Shown here: positions 1-22,567 of the stretch, piece by piece | How the letters are laid out: every line of letters begins with the position of its first letter | How positions within the stretch are numbered: position 1 is the stretch's first letter | From: Candidatus Solibacter sp. | Lineage (GTDB): Bacteria > Acidobacteriota > Terriglobia > Bryobacterales > Bryobacteraceae | Length of the DNA: 34,462 nt | Reading direction: 5' to 3' | NCBI GenBank assembly: GCA_026394025.1 | Contig: JAPKZC010000317.1 | Location: 1-34,462, forward strand | The notes under the pieces: model-generated | Told to the model about the DNA's origin: nothing | Seen by the model: only the letters and a program-made list of their open reading frames with translations | Databases searched by the model: none | Made by a program: the position numbers and the translations under genes

Positions 1-1131
1 GGCGGTGTAACTGATCCGGTTGAGCCCACCTTGGATCAACTCGTGGGCCCGGCAACCTTTCACGTAGACAGTGACATCGCCGGCAAGCTCCCGGACCAGT
101 TCCGGGGACAGTTTGCGCAAGTTCACCGTTCCCATCCGCGGGCCGTGGGGACAGGCTTGAAAGCGTCCGGTCGATCTTTCGCGGGCCAATGGCTGCAGCC
201 ATGGCGATTCCAGGAATCGATCGACATCCTCGTAGGCCAGGTCATTCGCGTGCCTGCCCTTTTTCGGAACCAGCAGGATTGACAAGCCGGAGTACTCGAC
301 CAGCAAGCGTTGCATAAGTACGAGGTCGAACAGCGATTCGATATAGTCGTCGGTGAACCAAACCAGCCGGCGGTTCGATGCCGCTATCTCCGCGGCGAAT
401 GTGTCCCAGTGATCGACCGCGAGGCCGGCGCGGGCGATGCGCTGCAATTCCGCCCAGACCGGGCCGGCCGTGTTCCTTACCGCGCGGTCGGCGACCCCCG
501 CCAGTCGAATGCCCTCCACGGAAAATCCCGAGGCAGCCGCGGCGGCGCCCTTGAGGTCGAGACCGATCAGGCCCGCAGCGATACTGTACGCGAGAAGCTC
601 CTTGGTTGACGGGTTCGACCGCAGCATGTGGTCCTCGATGATCCGCGAGGCCAACTCGAAGCCAATCGTGTTGAACCGTTGATGCGTGTCCAGTTCCTTT
701 GCCGGATCGCCAAACAGGCAGTATGCAATGATCCTTCGGACGACGTCTGGCAGTTCCTGGTTGGTGATGCTCTCTGCGATCGGCGCGTCATGGTGCCGGC
801 AGGCGAGGAATCTGGCGGTTTCGGCGGCGCACGCATCCTCAAGTCCAGGCTCGGCGCCCGCCTCCAGCGCTCCACTCTCGCGCATGCGATCTAACTCCCC
901 GCAAACGATCTCGCGCATCCAGTCGATGCCCGTCGGCTCCGCCCCGCTCAGCGGCGCTCTGCCGTTCAGCCGGTCCGCCACCGTGAACGTGTCGGGGACG
1001 AAATCGGCGCGCGACAGAATCGCCAGGGCCGCGTCGGGGCCAGCCGAATCGTCGCACAGGAAGTGGCGCAGGTTCCGTTGGATGGAGTCGGTAGTCAGAG
1101 AGCGGATCGCCCTGCGTCCCTCTGCGCTCAT
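1..1131 (-). CDS. DUF89/ARMT1-like (damage-control-phosphatase-like) domain protein. Only the N-terminal 377 codons are visible; the ORF runs off the left edge and is absent from the supplied ORF track.
   Basis: Hand translation of the minus strand from ATG (1131..1129) gives 377 codons with no stop down to position 1: MSAEGRRAIRSLTTDSIQRNLRHF...LVWFTDDYIESLFDLVLMQRLLVEYSGLSILLVPKKGRHANDLAYEDV...GTVNLRKLSPELVRELAGDVTVYVKGCRAHELIQGGLNRISYTA. A GGAGGAA Shine-Dalgarno (reverse complement of 1136..1142) lies 4 nt upstream of the ATG. It is a clear paralog of residues ~510-725 of the TIR protein at 4854..7253. The D-D-Y-x-E / N-D-x-x-x-x-D / (K/R)G-x-x-x-(Y/H)E pattern resembles DUF89 motifs, recalled from memory and not searched. 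Confidence 0.6.
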   Translation of the reverse strand, partial: MSAEGRRAIRSLTTDSIQRNLRHFLCDDSAGPDAALAILSRADFVPDTFTVADRLNGRAPLSGAEPTGIDWMREIVCGELDRMRESGALEAGAEPGLEDACAAETARFLACRHHDAPIAESITNQELPDVVRRIIAYCLFGDPAKELDTHQRFNTIGFELASRIIEDHMLRSNPSTKELLAYSIAAGLIGLDLKGAAAAASGFSVEGIRLAGVADRAVRNTAGPVWAELQRIARAGLAVDHWDTFAAEIAASNRRLVWFTDDYIESLFDLVLMQRLLVEYSGLSILLVPKKGRHANDLAYEDVDRFLESPWLQPLARERSTGRFQACPHGPRMGTVNLRKLSPELVRELAGDVTVYVKGCRAHELIQGGLNRISYTA

Positions 1132-1165
1132 TGAGTTCCTCCGTACCGCCGGGCCGCGTCAAGCC

Positions 1166-1744
1166 TCACGAGCCGGCACCGAATCTCAGCGGGTCATCGC
1201 CCGCGTTCAACAGATCGCCCACTCGCAGAAGCACGGCGCGATGCCCACCCGGGTCGTATACCGCTATGGACGGTCCGGGAAATCCTTCTTTGTCCAAAGG
1301 CACGAGCGTTCCAGGGTTGAGGGACAACGTGTTTCCAAAGCGCTCGATGGCGGGGCTGTGGTTGTGTCCGTGGCAGACCAGATCGTACTTACCGCTTGCC
1401 ACCAGTGCCTCGGTGATTTCATTGTGGTCGCCATGATAGATTGCGATGCGGCGGCCGAAGCTCTCGAAGGCAAGAAACCGATCCTGGATGGTTATGGCGA
1501 TGCCGAACTTGCCGGCATACTGGACATGCCGCACAGGGTCTCCGTCGTTGTTGCCAAATACCCCCATGATCTTGCACGGGAGGCCCTTGTAGTATTCGAG
1601 AGAGAACGGTGAGACCCAATCTCCGCAGTGAATCACCAAGGCAGCCTGCCGCTGCGCAAAGTAGCCGACAACCGCCGCGATATTCGCGATATGATCGTGC
1701 GTGTCCGACATGACTCCGATCAATAACCGAGATTCTTCTTCCAT
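1166..1744 (-). CDS. Metallophosphoesterase, YfcE/MJ0936 (Metallophos_2) family phosphodiesterase
   Basis: 192-aa ORF carrying the calcineurin-like motif series: GVMSDTHDH (D-x-H), HCGDW (G-D), GNND (G-N-H/N-D), HGD and GHNH. Its size is typical of MJ0936/YfcE-type enzymes. It lies 84 nt downstream of the NACHT gene and 34 nt upstream of the edge DUF89-like gene, on the same strand. Confidence 0.85.
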   Translation of the reverse strand: MEEESRLLIGVMSDTHDHIANIAAVVGYFAQRQAALVIHCGDWVSPFSLEYYKGLPCKIMGVFGNNDGDPVRHVQYAGKFGIAITIQDRFLAFESFGRRIAIYHGDHNEITEALVASGKYDLVCHGHNHSPAIERFGNTLSLNPGTLVPLDKEGFPGPSIAVYDPGGHRAVLLRVGDLLNAGDDPLRFGAGS

Positions 1745-1828
1745 AATCGAACCCCTCGTCTCGCCAAAACACCGGCGGTATCAGGCGGCTCAGGTACTTT
1801 GCATAGCGCCTTCCGCCTGCGCGTATCT

Positions 1829-4027
1829 CTAGCCTGCGGCCGCGCCCAGTGCCCGCAAGGCCTTTCGGGCCTCGTCCCTGACCTCGGGGTCTTTGTCGTC
1901 CGTAGCCAGTCCCAAAATATCCCGAGCGTTTGACCCTCCCAACTGCCATGCGGTCTGCACTACCGCTTTTCGCACGAGACTGATGGGATCTTTCATCGCC
2001 TGTTGCAGAACGGAGAAGGCAGCGACCCCTCCCAGACGGGCTAGCGCAAGCACCGAGTACTCGCGCACCTCCGGGTCGTCGTCGTGTAGAGCCCTATGCA
2101 ACAGGGTCGGACCCGCCCCCAGGGGGTCAATCATTTCGATCGCCCAGATCATGGAGCGCCGCACTCCGCCATCCGGTTCGTCGGCGAGACGCCCGGTCAG
2201 ATCCAGAGCATGATCCCGGGAGACTTCGCCCATCAGACCCAGCGCCACCGCGGCGTTCTGTCGAATAACTGGTTCGGTGGCGGAGTCTTTCAGACGCTCC
2301 AACAGCAGCCGTGAATCGGCCGGATTGCCCAATAGACCGAGCACAACCTCGGCGATACGGGAGACCCGCCTATCCTGTCCCGGCCTCCGTAGTGCCTCTC
2401 CGATGAGCTGCCTGGCCGCCGGCTCCCGATACCAGCCAAGTTCCATGATGGCCCGCCGCTTCTCCTCCGCCTCCGGGTGGTGCAGCAGGACAGCCCTGGC
2501 TTTTCCGGCCGCCGTTGCGCGGTCCGCGGCGGAACCGCGAAACGGCTGCCGGATCATGGCCCGCAGCGTCACCGCCGAGTTTCTGCGCAGTAGGGCGTAC
2601 TCCATCCCGGGGTAGTTCTCCAGGTAGCCGTGCAATCTCGCGCAACAATCCAGATTGTCCAACATCTGAGCCATGAAGTCGACCACGGCCGCGCCAGGCT
2701 GGACTTTGCTCAACTCCTTCGTGGCGCCCTCGGCATTCGCCAGCACCAGGCCGGCGAGGTGCCGTGCCATGAAATACTCGAGAAAGGACGTATGAACGAA
2801 TGTATAGCTGTCGGGCGGCGCTGCCACGAGAAACGAACAGGTGCCGATGTCATGCTTAAACGCATCCAACCCGGTGCCCGGCAGTGAGAAGCGGACCCGG
2901 AGCTTGTCGCGGATCGTCTTCCACGGAACGCAGTAGCTCCCTTGGAGGCCCATCTCCCACGCAAGTTCCGCCAGGAAAGACGTCTTGTCGTCACGGTCCA
3001 GTGTGGACCTGGAGTGTTGCGAGGCGATCCATTGGTCCGTGTAGGTTTCGTATAGCGCCGCCGAACTCACCGTTCCGGCGCCCAACTGGCCGCGCGTCTC
3101 CAGGATCATTTTCAGAAACAGGGGCGTGCGTGCGAGATCCTTCAGATCGTGGACCTCCGGAATCTCCCACTCCTGTTGGGTCACGGCCTTGATGTATTGC
3201 CTGATTTCCGCATCGGTCCACTTCCGGACCTGTACACGCGCGAAGTGTGCGAACTGGCTTGGCTCGACGCTATCCCGGAAGAAACTGTCGCGGCAGGATA
3301 GGATCAGATGCCCCTGCCGGGTTTGCGAGACAGCCAGTATCTTTTGCGCATTGCTCTGCACCTCGGCCCGGGTGGGACTGAGCGACATTTCGTCGAAGGC
3401 GTCGAGCACCAGCACGAGTTTCCCGGCCAAGCGTGCGTCGGCCAAGACATCGGTCTTCAAGACCACTCCATGCTTCATCAAAGTCCTGGCGACCAGCGCC
3501 GGCAGTGTCTCAGGGACGGCGCAGTCCTTGAGGCTGATGAAAATCGGTGTTCGGGACGCCGAATCCCCGGCCAGGCTCGCTTTCGCCAGTCGGTAAGTGT
3601 ACTCCCGGAGGAAGGTCGTCTTCCCTGTGCCAAAATACCCCAGCAGCAGGACGCATTTTGATTCGCTGGCGTGCTCGAAGAGGTCGTTGAAGCACGCGTC
3701 CAGGGATTCCCCGCCCTTGTAATCGGTTGTCGCGCTGACGTAAAGCTTGTGCTCCGGGCTCTGTTCCCATTCCGATACAAGATGTCTCAAGTACGGGCCG
3801 AAGCCCTGGGGGCGGAGGCGTTTATGACGGGAGATAAGAAGCATCAACGCGGTTGTCACCACAATCGCCACAACAGCGGCTGCGATCGCCCGCATTGGGT
3901 GTTTCTGAAAGAAGACAAGATAGGCTGCGCAGCCTGTGAGGAGTGCGCTCACGATCAAGCTCACGGTGAGCTTTTCGGGTATCTGCGCTCCGACCTTGCG
4001 TACCCACTGCCAGAATGTCACGGTCAC
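1829..4027 (-). CDS. Membrane-anchored STAND NTPase: two N-terminal TM helices, a NACHT-type P-loop NTPase, and C-terminal HEAT (PBS-lyase-like) repeats
   Basis: 732-aa ORF. Hydrophobic helices lie at about aa 21-40 (LTVSLIVSALLTGCAAYLVFF) and aa 46-66 (AIAAAVVAIVVTTALMLLI). Walker A is GYFGTGKTTF (aa 130-139) and Walker B is LVLVLDAFDEM (aa 204-214). A helical/winged-helix-like region follows. The last ~200 aa hold repeated D(P/K)xxxVRxxAxxALxxLG units (DDPEVREYSVLALARLGG, DPISLVRKAVVQTAWQLGG, DKDPEVRDEARKALRALG) typical of HEAT_2 repeats. Confidence 0.8.
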   Translation of the reverse strand: MTVTFWQWVRKVGAQIPEKLTVSLIVSALLTGCAAYLVFFQKHPMRAIAAAVVAIVVTTALMLLISRHKRLRPQGFGPYLRHLVSEWEQSPEHKLYVSATTDYKGGESLDACFNDLFEHASESKCVLLLGYFGTGKTTFLREYTYRLAKASLAGDSASRTPIFISLKDCAVPETLPALVARTLMKHGVVLKTDVLADARLAGKLVLVLDAFDEMSLSPTRAEVQSNAQKILAVSQTRQGHLILSCRDSFFRDSVEPSQFAHFARVQVRKWTDAEIRQYIKAVTQQEWEIPEVHDLKDLARTPLFLKMILETRGQLGAGTVSSAALYETYTDQWIASQHSRSTLDRDDKTSFLAELAWEMGLQGSYCVPWKTIRDKLRVRFSLPGTGLDAFKHDIGTCSFLVAAPPDSYTFVHTSFLEYFMARHLAGLVLANAEGATKELSKVQPGAAVVDFMAQMLDNLDCCARLHGYLENYPGMEYALLRRNSAVTLRAMIRQPFRGSAADRATAAGKARAVLLHHPEAEEKRRAIMELGWYREPAARQLIGEALRRPGQDRRVSRIAEVVLGLLGNPADSRLLLERLKDSATEPVIRQNAAVALGLMGEVSRDHALDLTGRLADEPDGGVRRSMIWAIEMIDPLGAGPTLLHRALHDDDPEVREYSVLALARLGGVAAFSVLQQAMKDPISLVRKAVVQTAWQLGGSNARDILGLATDDKDPEVRDEARKALRALGAAAG

Positions 4028-4149
4028 TCCCCACGCATCGTAACAAGCCCCGACTCGGGGCGCCAGCCCTCAGCCGGCATCGCCGGGATTTTAGGGCTCT
4101 ACAATCTGTTATTCGCCTGGGCTGTCCGGAAATCCCGTGTGCCGTTCGC

Positions 4150-4155
4150 TACAAT
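4150..4155 (+). promoter_or_regulatory. Possible -10 hexamer (TACAAT) placed for a leaderless or near-leaderless HAD-like transcript
   Basis: GCTACAAT ends 4 nt before the ATGATG at 4160..4165. A second CTACAAT sits at 4099..4105. The same CTACAAT box recurs upstream of the MFS gene (8893..8899). Based on the sequence motif only. Confidence 0.25.
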
Positions 4156-4159
4156 TCGG

Positions 4160-4639
4160 ATGATGTTGAACGTTGCGATTCCAGGTAGGGAGCCTCTGGT
4201 GTTACGCAGCCTCGCGCTCGATATCAACGGCACCCTGACCTGTGACGGTCGCTTGCTTCCCGGAGTGCGGGCCTCCATCAAACGCCTCAAACAGCAGTTG
4301 GACGTTTGCCTGATTTCTTGCGATTCGCGCGGCAACGCGCGAGCCATTGCCAAGTCTCTGGCGGTTCCCTTGCACGTCGTGGCATATCACCGCCGCGGCG
4401 AAGCTTTCGGCAAACTCGCCGTTCTACGTAGGCTGGGGCCGTCGGCTACCGCGGCCATCGGCAACGGCGAATCTGACCGCCTGATGTTCGAGGAGGCCGC
4501 CCTGAGCATCGCCGTTCTTGGGAAAGAGGGCGCGGCTGGAACGGCGCTGATGAACGCGGCCGTAGTCGTGCGCGACATCGCCGACGCGTTTGACCTGCTC
4601 CTGCACCCAGCCCGCCTGATTGCGACGCTTCGATGCTAG
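4160..4639 (+). CDS. Small HAD-superfamily protein, soluble P-type-ATPase-like (COG4087-like)
   Basis: This is the C-terminal 159 aa of ORF 3671..4639, starting at the in-frame ATGATG at 4160. The upstream part of that ORF is antisense to the NACHT gene and looks non-coding. Motifs: LALDINGTL (HAD motif I, D-x-N instead of D-x-D/T), CLISCDSRG (motif II-like S/T), GNGESD (degenerate G-D-G-x-N-D). The size matches stand-alone COG4087 proteins. Confidence 0.6.
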   Translation: MMLNVAIPGREPLVLRSLALDINGTLTCDGRLLPGVRASIKRLKQQLDVCLISCDSRGNARAIAKSLAVPLHVVAYHRRGEAFGKLAVLRRLGPSATAAIGNGESDRLMFEEAALSIAVLGKEGAAGTALMNAAVVVRDIADAFDLLLHPARLIATLRC

Positions 4640-4853
4640 GGCGGTATCGCCGTTGCCACGTCCATACCGGCGGAACTCGCCGCCACAACCGGGGAGTTTG
4701 CGACCCTTGCCACCGCCAATCTGCCGTTCATCCGCCAAGGCTTGGTCGAAATCCTGATGTCGCCGCCGCCTCTTGCCCGCATCGCCCACGTGGTCCGGGG
4801 CGGTCCGAACCTGTATAAACTCAGTGGCTGGATTGCGCACGTCCTGGTGGCGG

Positions 4854-7253
4854 TTAGGGCGCCATGCTGGCCCGGATTCCCGCCCAGCGATCCCGATCGT
4901 CCGCAACCGTCCTGGCCGCCAGTTGTTTGCCCCCTTCGATTCTCAGGTGGCGTTCCTTGAATCCCTTGAATGATCGATCTCCGGGCTGATGGACAATGTA
5001 CACAAAAGGCTTCTCCTCCGCCCGGAGCCCCGTAACCGATTCGCTGAAATCCCGGCACACCATAAACCCAAAGTACGCTTCCTTCTTGACCCCCTGCAAC
5101 ATCTCATAGTTCCGGGCCCCGCGTACATCGATCGCCGTACACGTCCGCAACAGGTCCACAATACCTGGGTGAAGCTTCCGTAGATTCACCCCTCCTAACT
5201 TGGGACCGTTGGGTTCCACGATGAAACGCGGGCAGTCCTTCAGGCACTCGAAATGTTCGACCATCTCCTTCACGTCGTTGAATGAAGCATCGTTACTGCA
5301 CCGCATGGACCTCGGGACGAGATGGATCTCTAGATGCGGGAATTGGCGCAGCAGTTCCTCGTAGTACCGGAGCAGAACGATCGTCTCCAGGTAGTCGTCG
5401 GAGAACCCGACCAACGTGAAATCGCGGTGCCGTTTCTCGATCCCCGTAAGAAACGCGTCGGTCGCATCGATGCGGCAAGGCGACTTTGATAACTGCCACA
5501 GTTCTTCGGCTACCCTCTGCACTTCCTGCGCGCGGACCTCGCCTTTCCGGTCCAACTGGATCCCGCTGCCCTCCACAATCTGCGACGTAGCCGCATGGGT
5601 CGGCTTCTCGTCAACACCCAATAAGCCCGCCGCTACCGAAAGGTGCAGCCATTCCCGAATTCCGAGTTTGTAGTGTCGTGTAAGGTAGTCCAACACCTCG
5701 AACAGAAAGTCCCGCCGCAACGAAGTCAGGGCCGGATAGAGGTCCAGTTCCCGATCGGGATCGTTCGTGAGGAAGGTCAGCAGGAGTCGCCGCAATATGT
5801 CCGAGTACTCCTGATACCAGATCTCCTTCTTCAACGATTCTTGCGGGCCCGGAGGATCGAAGTTCAGGGTCTCGAGCACGTTTCGGACGGCCCCGCCCCA
5901 CGCCGGACTCCGGGCAAGCGCGGGGCAGGCCCGGGCAATCACTTTCATGTCGTCCTCGAGAATCCCGCGCACCCAGGGGTCGAAGTCCAACGCCGGCGAA
6001 AGGAAGGGCGCCTGAACCGAAACCGCGTCAATCGTGTTTGTTCCCGCCTCGTAACCCGAGTCAATAAGATCGGAACCCCCGGCCAAACGTTCTTTCGTGT
6101 CCTGGTAACCCAGGATCACGCGGCGCACGTGCGTCCAGCAGTTGAGGTCCGGTCTGCAACAGCGAGTGCTCAGGCAGTTCCCCAGCATGGTCGCCACACG
6201 GCAGTTCCCCCAGTCGTCGTTGTAGTGACCGGCTTGGATCAGGGGTATGGCGGTGGACGATTCCAGCATCTGGGAAACCGAGCCGGCGATGGAGTCGAAC
6301 CACTTCCGGGCGTTGCCATCATCACTGCGGCTCAGTTTGAACTCCGGCACCGCTCCAGCATCTTCGCCATAGAGGTAGAGGCTGACGTAGCATGTCTCGC
6401 CATCGACAAGGATGGTACGAAAACGCGGCATGTAGTCCGTGAGATAGGCGTGAAAGAGGGGCGGCTGCTCGTGGTATTCGGCGATTGTCTTTAAGAAGTC
6501 GATACTGGCCTCGCTACGGCTCCTAAGGGGGTGAAATGGTTCGTGAGCGCGAGCGTAATTGCTGTGCGGATTCAGGAGCATCAGCGTGACGGTGACTCCA
6601 CGGTCGAACAGTTCACCTAAAGCCTTTCGCACCCGGGCGTCGCGAGCAAACCGATCAAGGGCAAGACCCCAAACAGTCAACGAAGATCGAGCCGTGAGCA
6701 TGATCTCGTGCAAATCGGCAAGTTCCGGAACCGGCGGAGCCTGCGGCCATTCGCCGGTGACACCCCACACCAGCCTTCTGAGGCTTTGTTCGTACTCTTC
6801 GTCCTTTCGGAAATCGACCCATTGCAGGATCTGGAGGAACTCGGGCAGTTGGGCATCGCGTAGCAGCACAGGGATTATCCTCGGGGGCTCGTCGGCATCG
6901 TTCATCGACACAAGCGCCCGATTGTACTCGGTCATCACCCAGCGGGAGCCCACAGATTCGGGTGAACAGATCAGAACCACCGCCCGACTTGTTTTCAGCC
7001 CATTTCCTAGTGCTTCAACGAAGAGATCCCCAGGACGGATTTGATCCCGGTCCAGCCAGACGCGCAGGCCCTGCGCCGCCAACCGCTCCTTGAGCCGCTT
7101 CGTCCACACCTCATCGCGGCTGTTGTAGCTCAGAAAGACATCGAAATCGAATCGCGTGGAACAGAGCAAAACGTAACACCCTTCAGGATCGGGCACAATG
7201 CCCACTTCGATGAATTGCCCCACCCGGCATATTCCGTCCGCCGGCGAGAGCAA
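4854..7253 (-). CDS. TIR domain protein fused to a PLD-like/unknown middle domain and a C-terminal DUF89/ARMT1-like phosphatase-like domain
   Basis: 799-aa ORF; the start is uncertain, with TTG at 7253 and several in-frame GTG/TTG codons before aa 30.
- TIR, aa ~36-167 (nt ~6753..7148): FDVFLSYNSRDEVWTKRLKERLAAQGLRVWLDRDQIRPGD...VLICSPESVGSRWVMTEYNRAL, with Glu109 at the position of the catalytic Glu of TIR NADases.
- Middle domain, aa ~178-340.
- Cys-rich stretch, aa 351-375: CRVATMLGNCLSTRCCRPDLNCWTH.
- DUF89-like region, aa ~430-760: FSDDYLE (nt 5385..5405), VPRSMRCSNDASFNDV, IDVRGARNYEMLQG. Confidence 0.8.
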   Translation of the reverse strand: MLSPADGICRVGQFIEVGIVPDPEGCYVLLCSTRFDFDVFLSYNSRDEVWTKRLKERLAAQGLRVWLDRDQIRPGDLFVEALGNGLKTSRAVVLICSPESVGSRWVMTEYNRALVSMNDADEPPRIIPVLLRDAQLPEFLQILQWVDFRKDEEYEQSLRRLVWGVTGEWPQAPPVPELADLHEIMLTARSSLTVWGLALDRFARDARVRKALGELFDRGVTVTLMLLNPHSNYARAHEPFHPLRSRSEASIDFLKTIAEYHEQPPLFHAYLTDYMPRFRTILVDGETCYVSLYLYGEDAGAVPEFKLSRSDDGNARKWFDSIAGSVSQMLESSTAIPLIQAGHYNDDWGNCRVATMLGNCLSTRCCRPDLNCWTHVRRVILGYQDTKERLAGGSDLIDSGYEAGTNTIDAVSVQAPFLSPALDFDPWVRGILEDDMKVIARACPALARSPAWGGAVRNVLETLNFDPPGPQESLKKEIWYQEYSDILRRLLLTFLTNDPDRELDLYPALTSLRRDFLFEVLDYLTRHYKLGIREWLHLSVAAGLLGVDEKPTHAATSQIVEGSGIQLDRKGEVRAQEVQRVAEELWQLSKSPCRIDATDAFLTGIEKRHRDFTLVGFSDDYLETIVLLRYYEELLRQFPHLEIHLVPRSMRCSNDASFNDVKEMVEHFECLKDCPRFIVEPNGPKLGGVNLRKLHPGIVDLLRTCTAIDVRGARNYEMLQGVKKEAYFGFMVCRDFSESVTGLRAEEKPFVYIVHQPGDRSFKGFKERHLRIEGGKQLAARTVADDRDRWAGIRASMAP

Positions 7254-7467
7254 TCATTGAGGCGGTGATGCAGTCTCCATGCGGGCCGCGCACCGGATGA
7301 GCGCGGGATTACAGGCTTTGGCGCGATGCCGCTCAAGTCGAGGTGCTATCCCGTCGGAGGCGAACTCCTATTCGAAATGGATGAAGAACCACCCGAAGAA
7401 ATGCTCTGTGACCCTGGCGGCCTCCCTCTTCCTGTTTGAGAAACCGCCCGCGCGAGTTGCCCCCGGC

Positions 7468-8805
7468 CTACGCCGCCTTCGGCATCGCTACCGTCTTCGA
7501 CTGCAACCCCGCCTTGGCCAGCGCGTAGTAGACCACGAACCCCACGATGAAGCTGTACACCACCGCCGGCTGCACGTACGATTTCGTTTCCGGCGAGAGC
7601 GTGATCGGTAGCACATCCAGCGGCAGTATGCCCACGATGAAGCCCACCGCCCAGGCGATGTAGCCCGCCATATTCACGCCTTCCCTCGGACCGCTCCACT
7701 TCTTGCCCGCCAGCAGATAGTCCGCCACCATGGCCCCGATGATCGGTCCGAAGCTGGCGCCCACAATCGTGAAAAACCCAATCAGGTTGGCCGCCACGCC
7801 CGTGATCGCCAGCAGAACTCCCACCGCCGCCGCCGCCATTGTGCTGGACACGCGCGGCACGCTCGGAATCATCGTATTGAAACTATTGCCCGCTATGAAC
7901 GCGCAGAAGCACGAAGCCGGAATCGATGCGATCGCGAACAGGAACAGCATCGCCGAAGCGATCGGCCCGCCGATGGCCTGCACCACTTCGCCGAAATCCC
8001 AGCTCTGCGTTAATCCGCTGCCGTGGGCTCCCGCCACCGCCAGAAGCGGCAGCCCGCCGGCCACCAGCACGGCCAGCGTGATGCCCACCAGCCCGCCCCA
8101 CCGCACGTCCCTTTCATCGCGCGCGTTCATTCCGAAATCCGCCCCCGCCGCGCCCGCCGTGGCGAAGAATCCGATCACGATGGCGATCATCGTGGTGAAT
8201 GCGCCGAATGAATTCTCCTGCGCCGCCGCCACCTGATAGTTGCTGATCCCGCCCGAGGTCTGAAAGAAGACCACCAGCAGCATCAGCAGCGGAATCGCAT
8301 TCAGAAACAGGGCGATCTTGGACACATACTGCACCCCTTTCGCGCCCGCAAATGCCATGGCGCCGCCCCACAGCACGCACACGATTCCGAAGGACAGCGT
8401 GCCCGGCTTCGACGCCATCCCCATTCCCCGCAGAATGTAATCGGCGGAGAAGAACGTGCCTACCGCGAACCACCCAATCTGCAATACACCCATCAGCAGC
8501 CCGGGCATCACGTAGCCGCCGGCCGTGCCGAAGGTGGAACTGCCCACCACGTACAGCGGGAACCCGGTTTTCATCCCAAGCATAGCCGGAACCCGATAGT
8601 ACAAGGCATAGCTCAGGATTCCAGCCACAGCCAGCGCGACCAGGCATAGCGCCAGTCCGCCATGTTGCAGCGTTCCTCCCGCCATCTGTTGATAGAAGGC
8701 GATCCAGAGAAAAATTCCGGCATAAGTAGGCGCGGTATTGGCATACCACGGCGCGCGTTTCCCCATCGGGTTGGGCACTGCTTTAGCAAGGTAGTCTGGC
8801 AACAT
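7468..8805 (-). CDS. Purine-cytosine/NCS1-type permease-like transporter (about 12 TM)
   Basis: 445-aa, highly hydrophobic multi-TM ORF (...APWYANTAPTYAGIFLWIAFYQQMAGG...GFPLYVVGSSTFGTAGG...). The overall pattern resembles CodB/CytX-like NCS1 permeases. The family call is from memory; the transporter call is solid. Confidence 0.7.
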   Translation of the reverse strand: MLPDYLAKAVPNPMGKRAPWYANTAPTYAGIFLWIAFYQQMAGGTLQHGGLALCLVALAVAGILSYALYYRVPAMLGMKTGFPLYVVGSSTFGTAGGYVMPGLLMGVLQIGWFAVGTFFSADYILRGMGMASKPGTLSFGIVCVLWGGAMAFAGAKGVQYVSKIALFLNAIPLLMLLVVFFQTSGGISNYQVAAAQENSFGAFTTMIAIVIGFFATAGAAGADFGMNARDERDVRWGGLVGITLAVLVAGGLPLLAVAGAHGSGLTQSWDFGEVVQAIGGPIASAMLFLFAIASIPASCFCAFIAGNSFNTMIPSVPRVSSTMAAAAVGVLLAITGVAANLIGFFTIVGASFGPIIGAMVADYLLAGKKWSGPREGVNMAGYIAWAVGFIVGILPLDVLPITLSPETKSYVQPAVVYSFIVGFVVYYALAKAGLQSKTVAMPKAA

Positions 8806-8905
8806 GGCTCTTCCTTTTTAAATTCCGAATTGTGGATCTGAAGCGGCCAGTATACTACACGGCAGTTCACAACTCTGCCCCCCTGGGAACTGCTACAATC
8901 CAATT

Positions 8906-8921
8906 CATGCCTTCAGGCATG
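8906..8921. promoter_or_regulatory. Inverted repeat CATGCC-TTCA-GGCATG just downstream of a TACAAT box (8894..8899) in the divergent NCS1/MFS intergenic region; operator-like
   Basis: Perfect 6-bp arms with a 4-nt spacer, read directly. It sits where a transcription start for the MFS gene (start 8948) would be expected. Confidence 0.3.
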
Positions 8922-8947
8922 TTCGCTTTTCCGAATAATACCCAATC

Positions 8948-10153
8948 GTGATCCGCCGGGTCTTCAAAGCTTTTCAATATCGCGACTTCCGCCTGATGTG
9001 GATGGGCGCCTGCACGTCCAGCATCGGTACCTGGATGCAGATCGCCGCCCAGAGCTGGCTCGTCCTCAAGCTCTCCAACTCGCCCTTTCTGCTCGGCCTC
9101 GATGCCTTCCTCGGCGGCATCCCCATTTTTCTCTTCTCCCTGGTCGGCGGCGTCGTGGCGGACCGCATCGAACGCCGTAAGGTTCTGCTGATTTCGCAAT
9201 GCGTGCAGATGGGCGCCGCCTTCCTGCTCACTGCTCTCATCGGATTCCGTCTCGTCCAGGTCTGGCAGATCCTCTGCCTGTCGTTTATCACCGGCCTCGC
9301 CCAGGCATTCGGCGGGCCCGCCTACCAGGCCCTCATTCCCACCCTGGTCAGTAAAGAAGATATGCCGAACGCCATTGCCCTGCAATCCATTCAGTTCAAT
9401 GTGGCGCGCGTGATTGGTCCCGCGCTGGGCGGCATCGCCCTCACCCAGTTGGGCGAAATGTGGTGCTTCGGACTCAACGGCCTCTCCTTTTTTGCCCCCA
9501 TCATCTCCCTCCTCATGCTCAAGACGCGCTTCTATCCGCGGAAAACCTCGGAATCGATTCTCGCCGGCATGAAGCAGGGCATTGCCTTCATCCGCAACCA
9601 GAGCGCCATGGAAGCCCTCATGGTGCTGGCGTTCTGCATGACGGCCCTGGGTGTGCCCATGATGACCTTCCTCCCGGTCTTCGCCAAAGACATTTTCCAC
9701 CAGGGTCCCGGCATGTTTACCTTGTTCCTCTCCGTCTCCGGCGTCGGTTCCATCGTGGGCGCGCTCACCGTCGCCGCCCTTGGCAATGTGCGCCATAAGG
9801 GACGCATCGCCCTCATCATGCTCACCTGCCTCGGCGCCGGCATCTCGGGATTCGCCCTCTCCACCTCGGTTTGGTTGAGTTGCACGATGCTGTTTCTCTC
9901 CGGAGCATCCCTGATTGCCGTCTTTACCCTGGTCAATTCGCTGGTCCAACTCATCACCACCAACGAAATGCGCGGCCGCGTGATGAGCGTCTACAACTTT
10001 TCCTTCCGCGGCGGCATGCCCATGGGAAACCTGTTGACCGGCTGGCTCGTCCCACTCTTTTCGGCCCCCCTCGTGCTCGCCGTGAACGGTCTCGTCCTCA
10101 TGGCTGTGGCAGTGTATTTCCTCGCGGTGCAACGGCGGGTCGCCGCTCTCTGA
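8948..10153 (+). CDS. MFS transporter (EntS/MFS_3-like)
   Basis: 401-aa ORF. The N-terminus FKAFQYRDFRLMWMGACTSSIGTWMQIAAQSWLVLKLSNSPFLLG...GGVVADRIERRKVL is characteristic of the MFS_3/enterobactin-exporter-like family, with about 12 hydrophobic segments. Confidence 0.85.
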   Translation: MIRRVFKAFQYRDFRLMWMGACTSSIGTWMQIAAQSWLVLKLSNSPFLLGLDAFLGGIPIFLFSLVGGVVADRIERRKVLLISQCVQMGAAFLLTALIGFRLVQVWQILCLSFITGLAQAFGGPAYQALIPTLVSKEDMPNAIALQSIQFNVARVIGPALGGIALTQLGEMWCFGLNGLSFFAPIISLLMLKTRFYPRKTSESILAGMKQGIAFIRNQSAMEALMVLAFCMTALGVPMMTFLPVFAKDIFHQGPGMFTLFLSVSGVGSIVGALTVAALGNVRHKGRIALIMLTCLGAGISGFALSTSVWLSCTMLFLSGASLIAVFTLVNSLVQLITTNEMRGRVMSVYNFSFRGGMPMGNLLTGWLVPLFSAPLVLAVNGLVLMAVAVYFLAVQRRVAAL

Positions 10154-16318: not shown

Positions 16319-17635
16319 CTACACCGGCTGCCGCGTTTGCCACTTGCCGCGGGTGAAATCCGGGAATTTCTGCGGCGCGCTGCCATTGGCCACACTCGCC
16401 TCGCTGAGCGGGATGGGGGCGCTCCAGGCGGCGGCGTCGTAGACATCGATATCCGGCGCGAGGCCCAGCTTCATGCACTCCACCAGGCGATATGCCATCA
16501 CGAAATCCATGCCGCCGTGGCCGCCCAGTTCCTTCGCCATCTCGCCGATCCTCTTCCACAACGCGGGCTCGTATTTCTCCTTGTACAAATCGAGCGATTC
16601 GAACGCCTCGCGCCGCGCCCCGTCGATGTAGACGCGCGCCGGATAGTCGCGGAAGATGCCCTTGGTGCCGGCGATCAGGTTGATGCGGTCGTAGGGTTGC
16701 GGGCTGCTGACGTTGTGCTCAAGCTCCAGCACGCGTCCCTTCACGGTGCGGATCAGGCTGACGTTGAAATCGCCTTCCTTGTAGACTTCCTTCTGGCGCG
16801 GGTCGTCCGCGGCGAGTTTCTCCTTACGGTACGCTTGCAGCCCCGCCGAAATGGAGCTCATGGAGACCAGCGTGTCGAAGCGGTCGCCGCGGTTGACGTC
16901 CATGTAGTGCGCCACCGGACCGAGTCCGTGAGTGGGGTAGAGGTTGCCGTCGCGGTTGAGGTGCTCGGCGCGGCGCCAGAGCCCTTCGCCCTGGCTGGAG
17001 AAAAGAATGCCGCGCAAATCGTGGTTGTAGGCGGCGCCCCCGTGTGTCAGCTCGCCGAACAATCCGGCGCGCACCATATTGAGCACCATCATTTCGTTGT
17101 AGCCGTAGCAGCAGTTTTCCAGCTGGATGCAATGCCGCTGGGTGGCCTCGCTGGTGTTGACCATGTCCCAGCACTCTTCCATGGTGCGCGCGGCGGGCAC
17201 TTCGATGGCGACGTGCTTGCCCTGCTTCATGCCGGCCACCGCCATGGGAACATGCCAGACCCAGGGTGTGGCGATCACCACCAGATCGATATCGTCGCGC
17301 TTCAGCAAGCCTTCGAACGCGCGGTCGTCGGAGTGAAACAGCGCGATGGGCTGCGAGGCCTTACCTGCTTTGTCCAACCTGGCCTGCGTGCGGAGCACCT
17401 TGTCCTTGACCGTGTCGCACAGCGCGGTGATCTGCACGCCGGGGACCGAGGAGAAGTTATCCACCAGCGAATTACCGCGGCCGCCGGTTCCGATGACGCC
17501 GATGCGCACCCTCTCCTTGGGGTCAAACTTCATATCCGCGACGCTTTTGGCCGCGGATTGCGGCCGCGCCAGGGCCGCGCCGAGCGACCCGAGCCCGGCC
17601 AGTTTCAATAAGTCGCGTCGTGAAGAATTCTCCAT
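16319..17635 (-). CDS. Tat-exported Gfo/Idh/MocA-family NAD-binding enzyme, GH109-like (alpha-N-acetylgalactosaminidase-like glycosidase)
   Basis: 438 aa. It has a twin-arginine signal (SRRDLLKLAGLGSLGAALA) and a Rossmann motif (RIGVIGTGGRG). The C-terminal ...GGHGGMDFVMAYRLVECMKLGLAPDIDVYDAAAWSAPIPLSEASV resembles GH109 enzymes, recalled from memory. Confidence 0.75.
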   Translation of the reverse strand: MENSSRRDLLKLAGLGSLGAALARPQSAAKSVADMKFDPKERVRIGVIGTGGRGNSLVDNFSSVPGVQITALCDTVKDKVLRTQARLDKAGKASQPIALFHSDDRAFEGLLKRDDIDLVVIATPWVWHVPMAVAGMKQGKHVAIEVPAARTMEECWDMVNTSEATQRHCIQLENCCYGYNEMMVLNMVRAGLFGELTHGGAAYNHDLRGILFSSQGEGLWRRAEHLNRDGNLYPTHGLGPVAHYMDVNRGDRFDTLVSMSSISAGLQAYRKEKLAADDPRQKEVYKEGDFNVSLIRTVKGRVLELEHNVSSPQPYDRINLIAGTKGIFRDYPARVYIDGARREAFESLDLYKEKYEPALWKRIGEMAKELGGHGGMDFVMAYRLVECMKLGLAPDIDVYDAAAWSAPIPLSEASVANGSAPQKFPDFTRGKWQTRQPV

Positions 17636-17645
17636 TGTCTCGCTC

Positions 17646-19328
17646 CTACTTCCAAAGTTTCCTGACCACTTGAATGACCACCAACGCGCTGACCGCGAAC
17701 ACTCCGCCCAGAATCATCGCATACCCGGTCCGCCCGTAGAGGAAATTACCGACCGTAAATAATGCCGACCAGATCATGGTACATCCCATGATCCACCCCG
17801 TGAGCGCCAGGGGAATATTGTCGCCTTCCACGGTGGCGGCGCTGGCCCGCGCCTGAATGTGCCGCCAGCCGGGACCGAAGGGGCGAACCTTTTCGTAGAA
17901 CGCCAGTAGCACCGCGGGGTCGGTCTGCGGGCCGACGTAAGCCGCCACGATCCAGGAGACGGTGGTGATCGCGATCCCGACGACCAACTGCTGCGAGAAG
18001 CCGAAGACCACGCCATTCTTGGAGAGAACCAGAAAGACGATGGCGGCGCCGAAGGAACTGATCATGGCCACGATCTCGCACCAGGCCGTGATCCGCCACC
18101 AGAACCAGCGCAGCAGATAGAGCAAGCCCACGAATAACAGCACCGTGGCATAGCGGCCTGCCAGCACGTAGTGCTTTTCGGGAGCATCGGCCTTGATGAA
18201 GCGGCGGTAGAAATCGTGGACCAGGTAGGAGGCGCCCCAGTTGAGGTGGGTCAGAATGGTGGAGGAGTTAGCCGCGATCAGGCCGCCCAGCATGAGCCCG
18301 ACCCAGCCGATGGGAAGGAAGCGCAGCATCGCGGGAAACGCGATGTCGTGACCCAGCAGTGTCGGGTCCAGATTGGGAAAGGCCTTCTGAATGTCGGACA
18401 GCTCGGGATACACGATCAGCGACGCGAGACCGACCAGAATCCAGGGCCACGGGCGCAACACGTAGTGTGCCACGTTGAAAAACAGCGTGCCGCCTAGCGA
18501 ATCCTTTTCGGATTTGGAGGCCAGCATGCGCTGCGCGATGTAGCTGCCGCCGCCGGGCTCCGCACCCGGATACCAGGTGGCCCACCATTGCACGGTGATG
18601 GGGATGATAAAGACGGCGACCGCGAGATCCCAGTTATTGGTGAAGTCCGGCAGCAGATTGAGGTAGTTCAGACCACCCGGACCCTTCATGACCGAGAGTT
18701 TGGCCACCAGGCCGGTGAGCCCACCCACCTGAGGCAGCGTCACCGCGAAGTAAGCCGCCGCGATTACTGCCGACATCTTGATGAAGAACTGGATCATGTC
18801 GATCACCAGCACTCCCCACAGTCCGGAGTAGGTGGCGAAGACCACGTTGAGCAAGCCCACCGCCAGCAGCGTCTGCCAGCGCTCCAGGCCGAACAGGATG
18901 GCCGCGATCTTGCAGGTGATGCAGTTGAAGAACAGGCCCAGGTACACGGCGCGAAACCCGCGCACGGCGCTGGCCGCTTTGCCGGAGTAGCGCAGTTCGT
19001 AGAATTCCAGATCGGTGAGCACGCCGGAACGCCGCCACAGGCGGGCGAAGAAGAATACCGTGGCCACCCCGGTGAGCGTAAAGGCCCACCACTGCCAGTT
19101 GCCGGCGACTCCCTGCGTGCGGACGAAGTTGGCAACCAGGTTTGGCGTATCGCTGGAAAACGTGGTGGCCACCATGGAGATGCCGGCCAGCCACCACGGG
19201 ACCGAGCGGCCCGAGGCGAAGAACTCCGCTGTGCTTTTTCCGGAGCGCTTTCCGAAGAACAGCGCGGGTACAAAACAGATGGCGACCGACAGGAACGCGA
19301 TGATCCAGTCGAGTGTGTGAAGGTGCAT
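17646..19328 (-). CDS. Sodium:solute symporter (SSS/SLC5) family transporter
   Basis: Taken from the ATG at 19328 (MHLHTLDWIIAFLSVAICFVPALFFGKRSGKSTAEFFASGRSVPWWLAGISMVATTFSSDTP...), giving 560 aa. The 73 upstream codons of the ORF overlap galK and are Arg/Gly/Pro-rich junk. Confidence 0.85.
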   Translation of the reverse strand: MHLHTLDWIIAFLSVAICFVPALFFGKRSGKSTAEFFASGRSVPWWLAGISMVATTFSSDTPNLVANFVRTQGVAGNWQWWAFTLTGVATVFFFARLWRRSGVLTDLEFYELRYSGKAASAVRGFRAVYLGLFFNCITCKIAAILFGLERWQTLLAVGLLNVVFATYSGLWGVLVIDMIQFFIKMSAVIAAAYFAVTLPQVGGLTGLVAKLSVMKGPGGLNYLNLLPDFTNNWDLAVAVFIIPITVQWWATWYPGAEPGGGSYIAQRMLASKSEKDSLGGTLFFNVAHYVLRPWPWILVGLASLIVYPELSDIQKAFPNLDPTLLGHDIAFPAMLRFLPIGWVGLMLGGLIAANSSTILTHLNWGASYLVHDFYRRFIKADAPEKHYVLAGRYATVLLFVGLLYLLRWFWWRITAWCEIVAMISSFGAAIVFLVLSKNGVVFGFSQQLVVGIAITTVSWIVAAYVGPQTDPAVLLAFYEKVRPFGPGWRHIQARASAATVEGDNIPLALTGWIMGCTMIWSALFTVGNFLYGRTGYAMILGGVFAVSALVVIQVVRKLWK

Positions 19329-19333
19329 AGGAA

Positions 19334-20413
19334 CTATGAGTTTACAGCGCCGGGACCCGGTTCGGCATGAAGAATGTGGTCGGGGCTTCCGGAATAGAAA
19401 CGCTCCACCAGGCCCGCGTGTACCTGGGAGAGGTCGGCGCGGCGGCAAAAGACCACCGCACAGCCGCCGAATCCGCCGCCGGTGAGGCGCGCGCCCAGAG
19501 CGCCGGAATCCATGGCGGCCTCCACCAGGCGATCCAGCGCCGGGCAACTGATTTCGAGACGATCGCGCAGGCTGGCGTGGGAAGCGAGCAGCAGGCGGCC
19601 GAAGCGGGCGGAGTCGTCGTCATGCATCGCCTGCACGGCGTGGCGCACGCGGTAGGCCTCGGTGACCACGTGGAGGAACGCGGGCGGCAGATGTTTGGCC
19701 GCAGCCAGGGCGCGAAGCTCCTCCTCGGTCCTGCCCTGAATCGCCTCGGCGTACGATGCGAAACCCGTCTCGCGCAACGCCTCCGTGCCCGCGGTGCGGA
19801 CCGCGTTGTAGCGGTCGCGTACCGCGCCCGATTTCTCGGCCACTTGCAGGCTGTTGGCCACCAGAAAGGCCCAGCCGGCGGGAATCGGAATGTGGTGCAC
19901 CGCGAGCGGCACGAACTCGATGAGCGACGCGCAGCCCTCGCGCGAAGCCAGCGATGCGGCGTGGTCCATGCCACCGCCCCGCGTACCCACGAACTGCTCG
20001 CCATCGGGGAGGATCTCCATCAGCTCTTCGAAGGACGCCACGCGCCGGTTGGCGCGCAGCAGCGCCAGGGTGACGGCGACAATCAGCGCGGACGATGACG
20101 AGAGCCCCGCCGCCGGCGGCAGGTCGGCTTCGATAGTGGCATCGATGCCGTTCATGACTCCCCACTTGCCGGCGATGGCCTGCGCGGCGGCGCGCAGGTA
20201 GTTCTCCCAATCGCCGCGCGCGACGGGCGTGAGGCCGCGCTTCCAGGCAAATTCGCGGTGCCCGTAGGCGCCGCTGGAGACGCGTATCTGGCAATCGGCG
20301 CGCGCCTGGAATTGAATGCGAATCGAGCGGCGGAGCGCCATGGGAAGCACGGGGAGGCCGTGGTAGTCGATATGTTCGCCGATCAGGTTGACACGCCCGG
20401 GAGCCGAGACCAT
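19334..20413 (-). CDS. galK: Galactokinase-family GHMP kinase (galactose or GalNAc 1-kinase)
   Basis: Galactokinase signature APGRVNLIGEHIDYHG, GHMP motif PPAAGLSSSSALIVA, and C-terminal ARLTGGGFGGCAV. The start is taken at MVSAPGRV; the ORF track starts 19 codons earlier, at 20470. The stop lies 5 nt before the SSS start, which implies an operon. Confidence 0.85.
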   Translation of the reverse strand: MVSAPGRVNLIGEHIDYHGLPVLPMALRRSIRIQFQARADCQIRVSSGAYGHREFAWKRGLTPVARGDWENYLRAAAQAIAGKWGVMNGIDATIEADLPPAAGLSSSSALIVAVTLALLRANRRVASFEELMEILPDGEQFVGTRGGGMDHAASLASREGCASLIEFVPLAVHHIPIPAGWAFLVANSLQVAEKSGAVRDRYNAVRTAGTEALRETGFASYAEAIQGRTEEELRALAAAKHLPPAFLHVVTEAYRVRHAVQAMHDDDSARFGRLLLASHASLRDRLEISCPALDRLVEAAMDSGALGARLTGGGFGGCAVVFCRRADLSQVHAGLVERFYSGSPDHILHAEPGPGAVNS

Positions 20414-20491
20414 TGCCCCACGATAACATTCCCGTGGGACAGACCACGCGGGCGGGCCCACAGGCTGCACCGTCCCGCGCGACCCTGTGGC

Positions 20492-21358: not shown

Positions 21359-21469
21359 ACCCAGTACCCTCCATGCTGGAACTGTTCAGACAGCCTGTAT
21401 CGCCGTCCACCAGCGAACACCAACGGTGTCCAATACTATACACGATGGGGGTTCGCGAGCGTGCGGGAG

Positions 21470-22455: not shown

Positions 22456-22567
22456 TCTCTCCAGTCTAGCGGATGTGGAAAGACGACAGACGACAAAAGG
22501 CGATCGTCAGTCCCACTGACGGCCGGAAGGTGCTACAAATGGAATAGGCCCCTTCCGCATTTCCGCA

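Follow-up and report, generated by a model that had tools for sequence, protein, structure and literature searches.

Gene content and genomic setting of the cluster

The first 7,253 nucleotides of contig JAPKZC010000317.1 (assembly GCA_026394025.1, Candidatus Solibacter sp.), which was analyzed over its whole length of 34,462 nucleotides and is referred to below as the window, carry five adjacent genes whose products combine a TIR domain, a NACHT NTPase domain and several phosphatase- and phosphoesterase-like domains (Table 1). A reading made from the sequence alone (hereafter the sequence-only reading) had proposed the five genes as a candidate immune or signalling system and three of them as an operon. 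The open reading frame (ORF) list and the translations reproduced its coordinates and its spacing: the genes for the NACHT-HEAT protein, the YfcE-type phosphodiesterase and the stand-alone DUF89-like protein lie on one strand with gaps of 84 and 34 nt, and no terminator-like site was found between them in a scan of positions 1-9000. All five ORFs are long and intact, and their codon-position GC is of the coding type. Database gene callers begin the ORF of the TIR-DUF89 protein at residue 11, which gives a protein of 789 aa.

Table 1. Genes of the cluster and domains of the TIR fusion protein, with positions in the window
Feature	Position	Strand	Remarks
TIR-PLD-fold-DUF89-fold protein	4854..7253	-	799 aa ORF; true start probably GTG at residue 11
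TIR domain	6756..7145	-	about residues 37-166; Pfam TIR_2 over residues 39-162
Middle domain	6219..6731	-	residues 175-345; predicted single-lobe phospholipase-D fold
Helical region and DUF89-fold phosphohydrolase-like domain	4878..6218	-	residues about 346-792
Small HAD-superfamily-like protein	4160..4639	+	159 aa; convergent with the TIR gene, divergent from the NACHT operon
2TM-NACHT-HEAT STAND NTPase	1829..4027	-	732 aa
MJ0936/YfcE-type metallophosphodiesterase	1166..1744	-	192 aa
Stand-alone DUF89-like paralog	1..1131, open at contig end	-	N-terminal 377 aa present

The region had also been described as an island of lower GC content. GC content at third codon positions (GC3) is indeed lower in the island genes (0.69-0.78) than in the neighbour genes (0.80-0.85), but the effect is mild. 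Scans of positions 1-9000 for promoters, terminators and repeats gave nothing informative and revealed no repeats flanking the island, and neither tRNA genes nor mobile-element genes were identified in the window. The other 27 kb are ordinary chromosome, with genes for permeases, SpoU, MgsA, GH109, GalK, M16, MacB/FtsX and others. The cytosine/purine permease encoded next to the island (7468-8805, minus strand) belongs to a 90%-identity cluster of 245 members, including a protein from a Candidatus Solibacter metagenome-assembled genome (MAG), whereas the island proteins are singletons among 5.8 billion sequences. Because of this disparity and of the lower GC3 of the island, we conclude that the cluster is a rare island of accessory genes, carried by a host close to Candidatus Solibacter whose acidobacterial lineage is well sampled. 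It was probably acquired horizontally. Both strands of positions 1-9500 also contain long antisense or overlapping ORFs (e.g., 686-1612+, 5643-6494+ and 8867-10822-) that lack codon-position GC of the coding type; judged by this measure, they are by-products of high GC content and not genes.

A TIR domain joined to predicted PLD and DUF89 folds

The N-terminal domain of the fusion protein matched Pfam TIR_2 (PF13676) with 109.6 bits against a cutoff of 28 (E = 1.8e-31), and the corresponding part of the AlphaFold model matched TIR structures in Foldseek with a TM-score normalised to the target of about 0.8. Residue E109 lies in the motif W-V-x-x-E-Y, and this Glu is conserved in 16 of the 17 TIR-bearing homologs of our alignment A1. 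The middle domain, to which the sequence-only reading had given no name, could be assigned from structure prediction. Modelled alone, residues 175-345 gave a predicted local distance difference test (pLDDT) score of 86 and a predicted TM-score (pTM) of 0.84, and the model matched phospholipase D (PLD; 7e0m, E = 5e-7) in Foldseek, as well as vaccinia F13, Nuc, Zucchini, the pseudo-PLD FAM83 and the sugar-binding domain of TrmB. A weak DUF5919 match in a homolog (P0012; homologous proteins and loci are given by our own P and L numbers) agrees with a PLD fold. At the position of the HxKxxxxD motif, set by motif spacing and not by superposition, the protein reads R277-F-R279-T-I-L-V-D284, which is invariant or nearly so in the family and contains no His (A1). 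Because this His is missing, the predicted domain is probably a non-catalytic pocket that binds phosphate or another ligand.

The C-terminal half of the protein matched the ARMT1-like/DUF89 family of Pfam (PF01937) with 21.5 bits, below the cutoff of 25, while its homologs reached 20-42 bits. In the AlphaFold model of the 799-aa protein (pLDDT 83.9, pTM 0.75), this half matched PH1575 (2g8l) with E = 1e-9 and a TM-score normalised to the target of 0.72-0.74, followed by At2g17340, AF1104 and fission-yeast Duf89 (1xfi, 2ffj, 7t7k). For the TIR fusion, the DUF89 fold is thus confirmed at the level of structure prediction. A PDB search with the A1 sequence profile returned TIR and methyltransferase matches and no DUF89 entry among its top 60, so that the assignment rests on Pfam and Foldseek. 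The DUF89 parts of the fusion and of the stand-alone protein are 30% identical over 257 aa (E = 2e-30); by this similarity they are clear paralogs, as had been proposed.

The DUF89 motifs of the fusion are D619-D620-Y-L-E623, N654-D655 and R711-G-A-R-N-Y-E717. A study of fission-yeast Duf8901 defined the roles of the nucleophile and metal-binding Asp-Asn pair, of a second metal-binding Asp and of a phosphate-binding Lys (PMC9062747). In a sequence alignment to P0195, a homolog with the canonical D-N-N-G-E, D619-D620 corresponds to the Asp-Asn pair, N654-D655 to the second metal Asp and R/K711-G-x-x-N-Y-E to the Lys region; by this correspondence, the Asn of the pair is changed to Asp in the DUF89 copies of the window. 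Both copies and most of the family keep these putative active-site motifs.

The NACHT-HEAT operon and the HAD-like gene

The first protein of the operon matched NACHT (PF05729) with 39.2 bits against a cutoff of 26.7, and HEAT_2 with 85 bits in three C-terminal stretches, the best of which spans residues 640-725. It carries a Walker A motif, GYFGTGKTT, and a Walker B motif, LVLDAFDEM, of which GxFGTGKTT and LDAFDEM are invariant in our alignment A2, and hydrophobic segments at residues 19-42 and 43-69 (two transmembrane segments, 2TM). The family comprises about 8 full-length clusters. In the homologs P0073-P0078, a soluble domain follows the transmembrane helices within the N-terminal region of about 100-260 aa and shows a pattern reminiscent of Mrr-type restriction endonucleases (G-F-S-I-E ... 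R-G-I-D ... V-A-V-x-x-E); the C-terminal part of this domain could be aligned with the last stretch of the Mrr_cat region of P0082. Judging from this pattern and alignment, the soluble domain may be Mrr-like.

The YfcE-type protein matched Metallophos_2 with 97.6 bits and TIGR00040 with 79.8 bits (cutoff, 56.25). It aligned with MJ0936 (PDB 1s3l) at E = 6e-27 over the five metallophosphoesterase motifs, and all of its metal-binding motifs (DTHDH, GDW, GNND, YHGD and GHNH) are kept. Pfam and NCBIfam profiles above threshold therefore bear out the TIR, NACHT-HEAT and MJ0936/YfcE assignments of the sequence-only reading. The same holds for the stand-alone DUF89-like protein, which matched PF01937 with 36.1 bits (cutoff, 25), whereas its paralog in the TIR fusion, below the cutoff, is supported by AlphaFold and Foldseek. 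The stand-alone protein keeps the motifs DDYIE, NDLA and KGCRAHE, and a GGAGGA ribosome-binding site lies 5′ of its ATG. Its homologs are 460-493 aa long, which places about 110 aa or more beyond the contig end; by analogy with a fused homolog encoded at locus L044 (see below), the missing part possibly includes a methyltransferase.

The fifth gene had been described as encoding a mini-HAD protein. The superfamily assignment is borderline, with 26.7 bits for Pfam Hydrolase (PF00702) against a cutoff of 26.4, together with weak NCBIfam matches to P-type ATPase and PSP-like families and a best PDB match to phosphoserine phosphatase 1f5s at E = 0.03. The codon-position GC of the gene is coding-like, but the catalytic motifs are altered, with DINGT in place of DxDxT and GNGESD in place of GDGxND, that is, with Asn for the second Asp of motif I and for the first Asp of motif IV. 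From these motifs, it may be a phosphatase of impaired or atypical activity, similar to the soluble P-type-ATPase-like HADs.

A constant core with exchangeable N-termini

To place the TIR fusion among its relatives, residues 175-799 were used in an exhaustive HMMER search, which returned 233 clusters at E <= 1e-3 among 1.84 billion representatives. About 20 full-length relatives of the protein were found among 5.8 billion proteins; almost all of them are about 1000 aa long and end in a class-I S-adenosylmethionine (SAM)-dependent methyltransferase. A scan of 185,579 species genomes yielded 7 loci, all in MAGs. The PLD-DUF89 core had no tblastn match in 72,556 plasmids, the NACHT-HEAT query gave generic NACHT matches only in the same set, and neither family was found in IMG/VR.

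The constant part of the family consists of the PLD-like domain, with or without DUF89, and the methyltransferase, whose nearest structural and sequence relatives are the small-molecule methyltransferases TehB, TPMT and phosphoethanolamine methyltransferase. The N-terminus is a TIR domain in most members, Trypsin_2 in P0012, a caspase followed by TIR in P0204, a PNP_UDP nucleosidase in P0088 and a 2TM segment in P0018, P0021, L030, L031 and L021. At L020 the TIR domain stands at the C-terminus, and at L042 DUF89 is encoded by a separate gene. Further fusions add a metallophosphoesterase to TIR-DUF89-methyltransferase (P0014) or a GT4-conflict glycosyltransferase (P0196). Classic effectors of abortive infection are in this way exchanged on a constant core, which is, by analogy, the pattern of immune proteins. 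The methyltransferase is also missing from P0021, L030 and L031. No remnant of it was detected anywhere in the window, in which only 214 nt separate the TIR gene from the convergent HAD-like gene, and the TIR-DUF89 copy of the window is truly without this domain. In Thiohalocapsa sp. PB-PSB1 (L023/L039, 9821-13819), a member of the family is split into three ORFs of 306, 384 and 285 aa, with TIR on the last and transposase-like ORFs nearby; this copy looks pseudogenised or rearranged.

The NACHT-HEAT operon is conserved and linked to TIR-phosphatase fusions

We compared the neighbourhoods of the NACHT-HEAT gene in the window, L043 and L044. In all three, a YfcE ortholog lies directly 3′ of the NACHT-HEAT gene, and in all three a DUF89-like gene, a SAM methyltransferase gene or both belong to the same operon. 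At L043, the NACHT-HEAT gene (48% identity) is followed after 49 nt by the YfcE gene (61%) and after a further 42 nt by a SAM methyltransferase gene. At L044, the order is DUF89-methyltransferase, Exo_endo_phos, NACHT-HEAT (38%) and YfcE (51%), and the DUF89-methyltransferase, of 714 aa, is 39.5% identical to the stand-alone paralog of the window. On the opposite strand, 1.8 kb upstream, a further gene encodes a TIR-HAD fusion. We considered whether this fusion and the window protein have the PLD-like middle domain in common and rejected the idea, as hhalign found similarity in the TIR part only. The HAD-like protein of the window gave no BLASTP match to the HAD part of the fusion, which belongs to a different subfamily; on these comparisons, the membership of HAD in the cluster rests only on recurrence at the superfamily level.

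More distant associations were also found. L001/L002 has an operon of overlapping genes that encodes a NACHT-HEAT protein distantly homologous to that of the window (E = 7e-20 over 641 aa) together with a methyltransferase, TIR-PLD-DUF89-methyltransferase, a GT4-conflict glycosyltransferase and AIRS (PurM-like), and at L042 the gene for a 2248-aa NACHT protein is divergent from those for TIR-PLD-methyltransferase and a separate DUF89. In an all-against-all ORF comparison of about 30 non-redundant loci, NACHT-HEAT recurred as a neighbour in 4 loci, YfcE in 4, GT4 in 5, AIRS in 3 and Exo_endo_phos in 2; beyond its 4 loci, YfcE occurs as a possible frameshifted remnant in L010-12 and in the P0014 fusion. 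The YfcE-like gene of L010 (9609-10013; also in L011 and L012) lies between AIRS and GT4 and is split over two frames, which may reflect either a frameshift in a remnant gene or a fault of the assembly. The operon of NACHT-HEAT, YfcE and DUF89 (or DUF89-methyltransferase) is thus conserved and repeatedly linked to TIR-phosphatase fusions. The synteny called for by the sequence-only reading was found for NACHT-HEAT, YfcE and DUF89 or methyltransferase in the three loci that could be read, but in most cases the gene for the TIR-DUF89 protein has no NACHT operon beside it.

The wider surroundings are rich in conflict genes. Relatives lie near a type IIG restriction-modification gene, GmrSD and AbiEii, near Trypco1, a BrxC/D-like gene and a Cas4-like gene, and near extra TIR genes and SLATT, and another lies near a TIR-NB-ARC-TPR gene. 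Around L043 and L044 there are ThiF, a prokaryotic E2 gene, KAP NTPase, IS1 and SNF2. ThiF (E1-like) genes occur near both operons, at 365-1171 and, as a second, fragmentary copy, at about 9915-10264 of L043, and at 17659-19154 of L044 with Prok-E2_D; they could be a recurrent partner, or belong to a ubiquitin-like conflict system that is an unrelated neighbour. Immediately downstream of the TIR-DUF89-methyltransferase/GT4/AIRS operon, L001 carries a DNA methylase with a PRTase-CE/ORC-CDC6-like conflict system (16591-21812). Genes for group II intron reverse transcriptases and a Mu-type transposase lie on the flanks (1-1693 and 22205-22943), so that the whole is a dense island of defence and mobile genes. 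A PGM/PMM gene adjoins TIR-DUF89-methyltransferase in L003/L004 (10938-12284) and the NACHT-HEAT/YfcE/methyltransferase operon in L043 (6921-8843), and a sugar-1-phosphate nucleotidyltransferase gene adjoins the family member of L010 (3617-4486). Alongside GT4 and AIRS, these genes suggest a possible link to sugar nucleotides.

A candidate STAND/TIR conflict system and its alternatives

Considering that the two gene sets draw on the same domains and recur together, the reading that we favour is that the cluster is a single undescribed STAND/TIR conflict system of the anti-phage type, equipped with nucleotide-processing phosphoesterases; on the sequence data we place about as much trust as doubt in it. 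This reading is built on gene content, folds, motif conservation, N-terminal swaps and synteny, from which we infer a defence function, a ligand and a direction of information flow. The system would consist of two modules. Module A comprises the membrane NACHT-HEAT protein, the YfcE phosphodiesterase and the putative DUF89 phosphohydrolase, in whose place other loci have a SAM methyltransferase or a fusion of DUF89 with one. Module B is a single chain of TIR (Glu109), a PLD fold without the catalytic His (RxRxxxxD) and a second DUF89-fold domain. The NACHT-HEAT protein would act as an ATP-dependent infection sensor and TIR as an NAD+-cleaving output, in whose place some relatives have a protease, a nucleosidase or a 2TM segment. 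The core of PLD-like and DUF89 domains, with the methyltransferase where present, would be an enzyme-derived switch that binds or converts a phosphorylated, nucleotide-derived small molecule, and phosphodiesterase, phosphatase and methyltransferase would make, edit or destroy this molecule, coupling sensing to the activation of TIR or to its reset. A more specific proposal, which we put forward as a speculation and think rather unlikely to hold in full, is that DUF89, SAM methyltransferase and YfcE represent a new immune small-molecule chemistry that produces, modifies or removes a messenger derived from NAD or another nucleotide and methylated, dephosphorylated or both. The pseudo-PLD domain would read this messenger, which would thereby connect the membrane STAND sensor with its exchangeable effectors. 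If true, this messenger pathway would be distinct from the cyclic-oligonucleotide, cyclic ADP-ribose (cADPR)-isomer, His-ADPR, SAM-AMP and dITP systems.

Several observations weigh against the single-system reading. No recognisable signal synthase other than TIR is present. Most TIR-PLD-DUF89-methyltransferase genes occur without NACHT-HEAT or YfcE (e.g., L003, L005 and L020), and because of this the protein may be self-sufficient. No ortholog of the HAD-like gene of the window was found in the related loci, and the comparison of three NACHT-HEAT neighbourhoods does not include those of the homologs P0074, P0075, P0077, P0078 and P0079. The catalytic residues of DUF89 are lost in P0020 (D620T, N654T, D655Y and E717R); because of this loss, it appears from sequence that DUF89 catalysis may not be essential in every member and that the domain may have a non-catalytic role. 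The P0020 ORF (L001, 10001-12943) is intact and lies in a six-gene operon despite the loss. Finally, the window copies themselves are atypical: the TIR protein has no C-terminal SAM methyltransferase and ends shortly after the start of the conserved boundary segment RWEGGHLA (A1), its PLD-like domain deviates at four near-invariant residues (H197L, T198A, K201R and E244R), and the NACHT-HEAT protein is short of the roughly 150-aa N-terminal soluble domain present in all close homologs (A2).

These last departures, together with the degenerate HAD motifs and with the loss of the methyltransferase exactly at a domain boundary, 214 nt from the next gene, would fit a trimmed or decaying remnant without current function, of a family that may be a real system elsewhere. 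We consider this unlikely, as all five ORFs are long and intact with codon-position GC of the coding type, and TIR, Walker A and B, YfcE and both sets of DUF89 catalytic motifs are kept; moreover, P0021 and L030/L031 lack the methyltransferase too, and the stand-alone paralog may bear one past the contig end, like the L044 protein. The main alternative is that the window holds two independent systems that are neighbours by chance, a single-gene effector-PLD-DUF89(-methyltransferase) and a three-gene NACHT-HEAT/YfcE/DUF89(-methyltransferase); DUF89 would then be a common building block and no sign of a physical or functional link. Defence genes cluster in islands, the two modules of the window are separated by the oppositely oriented HAD-like gene, solitary TIR-PLD-DUF89-methyltransferase genes are found beside PGM at L003, among housekeeping genes at L020 and at L005, and the 11.5-kb contig of L043 carries NACHT-HEAT, YfcE and methyltransferase genes and no TIR gene. 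This is a possibility to be taken seriously, although we find it well short of even. Both families are very rare (about 8 NACHT-HEAT and 233 DUF89-like clusters in the databases searched), yet they are found together in the window, in L001 (in the same operon), in L044 and in L042, and DUF89-like and methyltransferase modules pass between the two gene sets, fused or separate.

The phosphoesterases (YfcE, DUF89, HAD and, in relatives, Exo_endo_phos), the methyltransferase and the PLD-fold domain could also act on the ends of phage or host RNA or DNA, processing or modifying them, and not on a small-molecule signal. In bacterial Pnkp the 3′-phosphatase is a metallophosphoesterase, in T4 Pnkp the phosphatase is of the DxDxT type, and Hen1 acts as a SAM methyltransferase; the enzyme set of the cluster recalls this combination of Pnkp/Hen1 healing with 2′-O-methylation, and nuclease effectors would be another analogy. 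The DUF89 active site has been likened to that of the T4 3′-phosphatase (PMC9062747), the PLD-fold domain is structurally similar to nucleases (Nuc, Zucchini and PLD3), and Exo_endo_phos genes adjoin the module in L044 and L031. We nevertheless regard end processing as very unlikely: the PLD domain has RxR in place of HxK and thus no His nucleophile, the relatives of the methyltransferase are the small-molecule enzymes named above, the characterised DUF89 enzymes act on small phospho-metabolites and pyrophosphate (PPi) (PMC9062747), and no ligase or kinase partner is present. Least probable of all, to the point that we give it hardly any weight, is that the genes serve ordinary metabolism or damage control, such as the repair of sugar phosphates or cofactors, and have no role in conflict. 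DUF89 enzymes are damage-control phosphatases, both by their NCBIfam name and in the literature (PMC9062747), and some relatives lie near PGM/PMM, NTP_transferase, GT4 and AIRS genes. Fusions to TIR, trypsin, caspase and PNP effectors are, however, not a metabolic pattern, the module occurs in operons with STAND NTPases and in the context of defence islands or mobile elements, and its distribution, with 7 loci in 185,579 species genomes, is very sparse.

The proposal of the sequence-only reading that the cluster is an immune or signalling candidate therefore survives the computational tests that we ran and is supported by them, with corrections on four points: the middle domain has a PLD fold, the window copy is missing the methyltransferase, the evidence for HAD is weak and the linkage of the genes is modular and not obligatory. 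If the single STAND/TIR system that we favour is functional, the STAND/TIR repertoire gains a DUF89-fold phosphohydrolase, a pseudo-PLD domain and a methyltransferase of the small-molecule type, and an obscure DUF89 subfamily gains a physiological context. The cluster raises the testable question of whether an immune signal derived from a nucleotide is generated or reset by phosphatases together with a phosphodiesterase and a methyltransferase, or whether infection is sensed by a domain of enzymatic origin. The swappable N-terminal effectors (TIR, trypsin, caspase, PNP and 2TM) on one core suit structure-function work. The family is very rare and has so far been found only in uncultured environmental bacteria, and the copy in the window is atypical and trimmed; the 245-member permease cluster offers many related contigs that bear on the empty site of the island.

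Comparison with known systems

The cluster matched no named system. PADLOC gave only domain-level TIR and HEAT matches for the five proteins and nothing for YfcE, DUF89 or HAD, NCBIfam held no equivalog for any of them, and full-text literature searches returned no paper that links DUF89, ARMT1 or DUF5919 to TIR or to anti-phage defence. The earlier remark that DUF89 is not known as a part of any named defence system thus agrees with PADLOC, NCBIfam and the literature searched. Four known types were considered and rejected. For Thoeris, ThsB_TIR reached 14.9 bits against a cutoff of 21.2, the PADLOC ThsB matches were partial and no SIR2, SLOG or Macro domain is encoded by the five genes. For CBASS, TIR-SAVED and TIR-STING, the PADLOC SAVED_TIR match covers only residues 38-120, and no cyclase, SAVED or STING domain was found. 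EruA (NF058535) gave 25.4 bits against a cutoff of 1000, and for retron-TIR the PADLOC and NCBIfam matches were at the domain level or far below threshold.

In function, the nearest analogues are the Avs/bNACHT STAND sensors, TIR effectors joined to ligand-sensing domains and, as a concept, Kongming. Like the Avs/bNACHT STAND NTPases, the NACHT-HEAT protein has a NACHT P-loop with Walker A and B motifs, C-terminal helical repeats in the place of the sensor and an N-terminal module in the place of the effector. Unlike them, its N-terminus is a 2TM segment only (in homologs, 2TM and a soluble, maybe Mrr-like, domain), its gene forms an operon with those for a YfcE phosphodiesterase and a DUF89 or methyltransferase protein, and PADLOC gave no match at the STAND level. 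The TIR domain has its catalytic Glu in common with TIR-SAVED, TIR-STING, Cat1 CARF-TIR, SPARTA TIR-APAZ and ThsB, and like such effectors it is fused to a larger constant region; the exchange of TIR for other abortive-infection effectors in relatives of the window protein is in line with TIR-sensor fusions. By contrast, the fused region is here a predicted PLD fold and a DUF89 fold, with a methyltransferase in relatives, and not SAVED, STING, CARF or APAZ, and the window locus encodes no CD-NTase, Cas10 or ThsA (SIR2/SLOG/Macro).

The DUF89/ARMT1-like phosphatases (PH1575, At2g17340, YMR027W and S. pombe Duf89/Duf8901) have the same fold and, by sequence alignment, counterparts of the nucleophile/metal Asp, the second Asp and K/R-G-x-x-N-Y-E. 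The 233-cluster subfamily described here differs from them in having D-D-Y-[IL]-E for D-N-x-G-E, an extra N-terminal helical region and habitual fusions to SAM methyltransferase, a PLD-like domain and immune-type effectors. In Kongming (KomABC), nucleotide-metabolising enzymes make a non-cyclic, base-modified nucleotide signal that activates an NAD+-depleting effector, and nucleotidases and SAM methyltransferases are found beside variant effector modules. Kongming is a conceptual precedent only, as the window has no deaminase, HAM1-like or SIR2-like part and no homology was detected. The GT4-conflict and ternary systems, known from comparative genomics (Kaur et al. 2021, PMC8195603), draw on the same set of exchangeable effectors (TIR, caspase, trypsin and PNP), and relatives of the TIR-DUF89-methyltransferase gene adjoin GT4-conflict glycosyltransferases and Trypco1; the window locus, by contrast, has no GT4 or AIRS, and DUF89 or ARMT1 has 0 occurrences in that paper. 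Set beside these systems, the cluster, with parts that were not found in the catalogues and literature searched, is a putative variant of STAND/TIR-type immunity.

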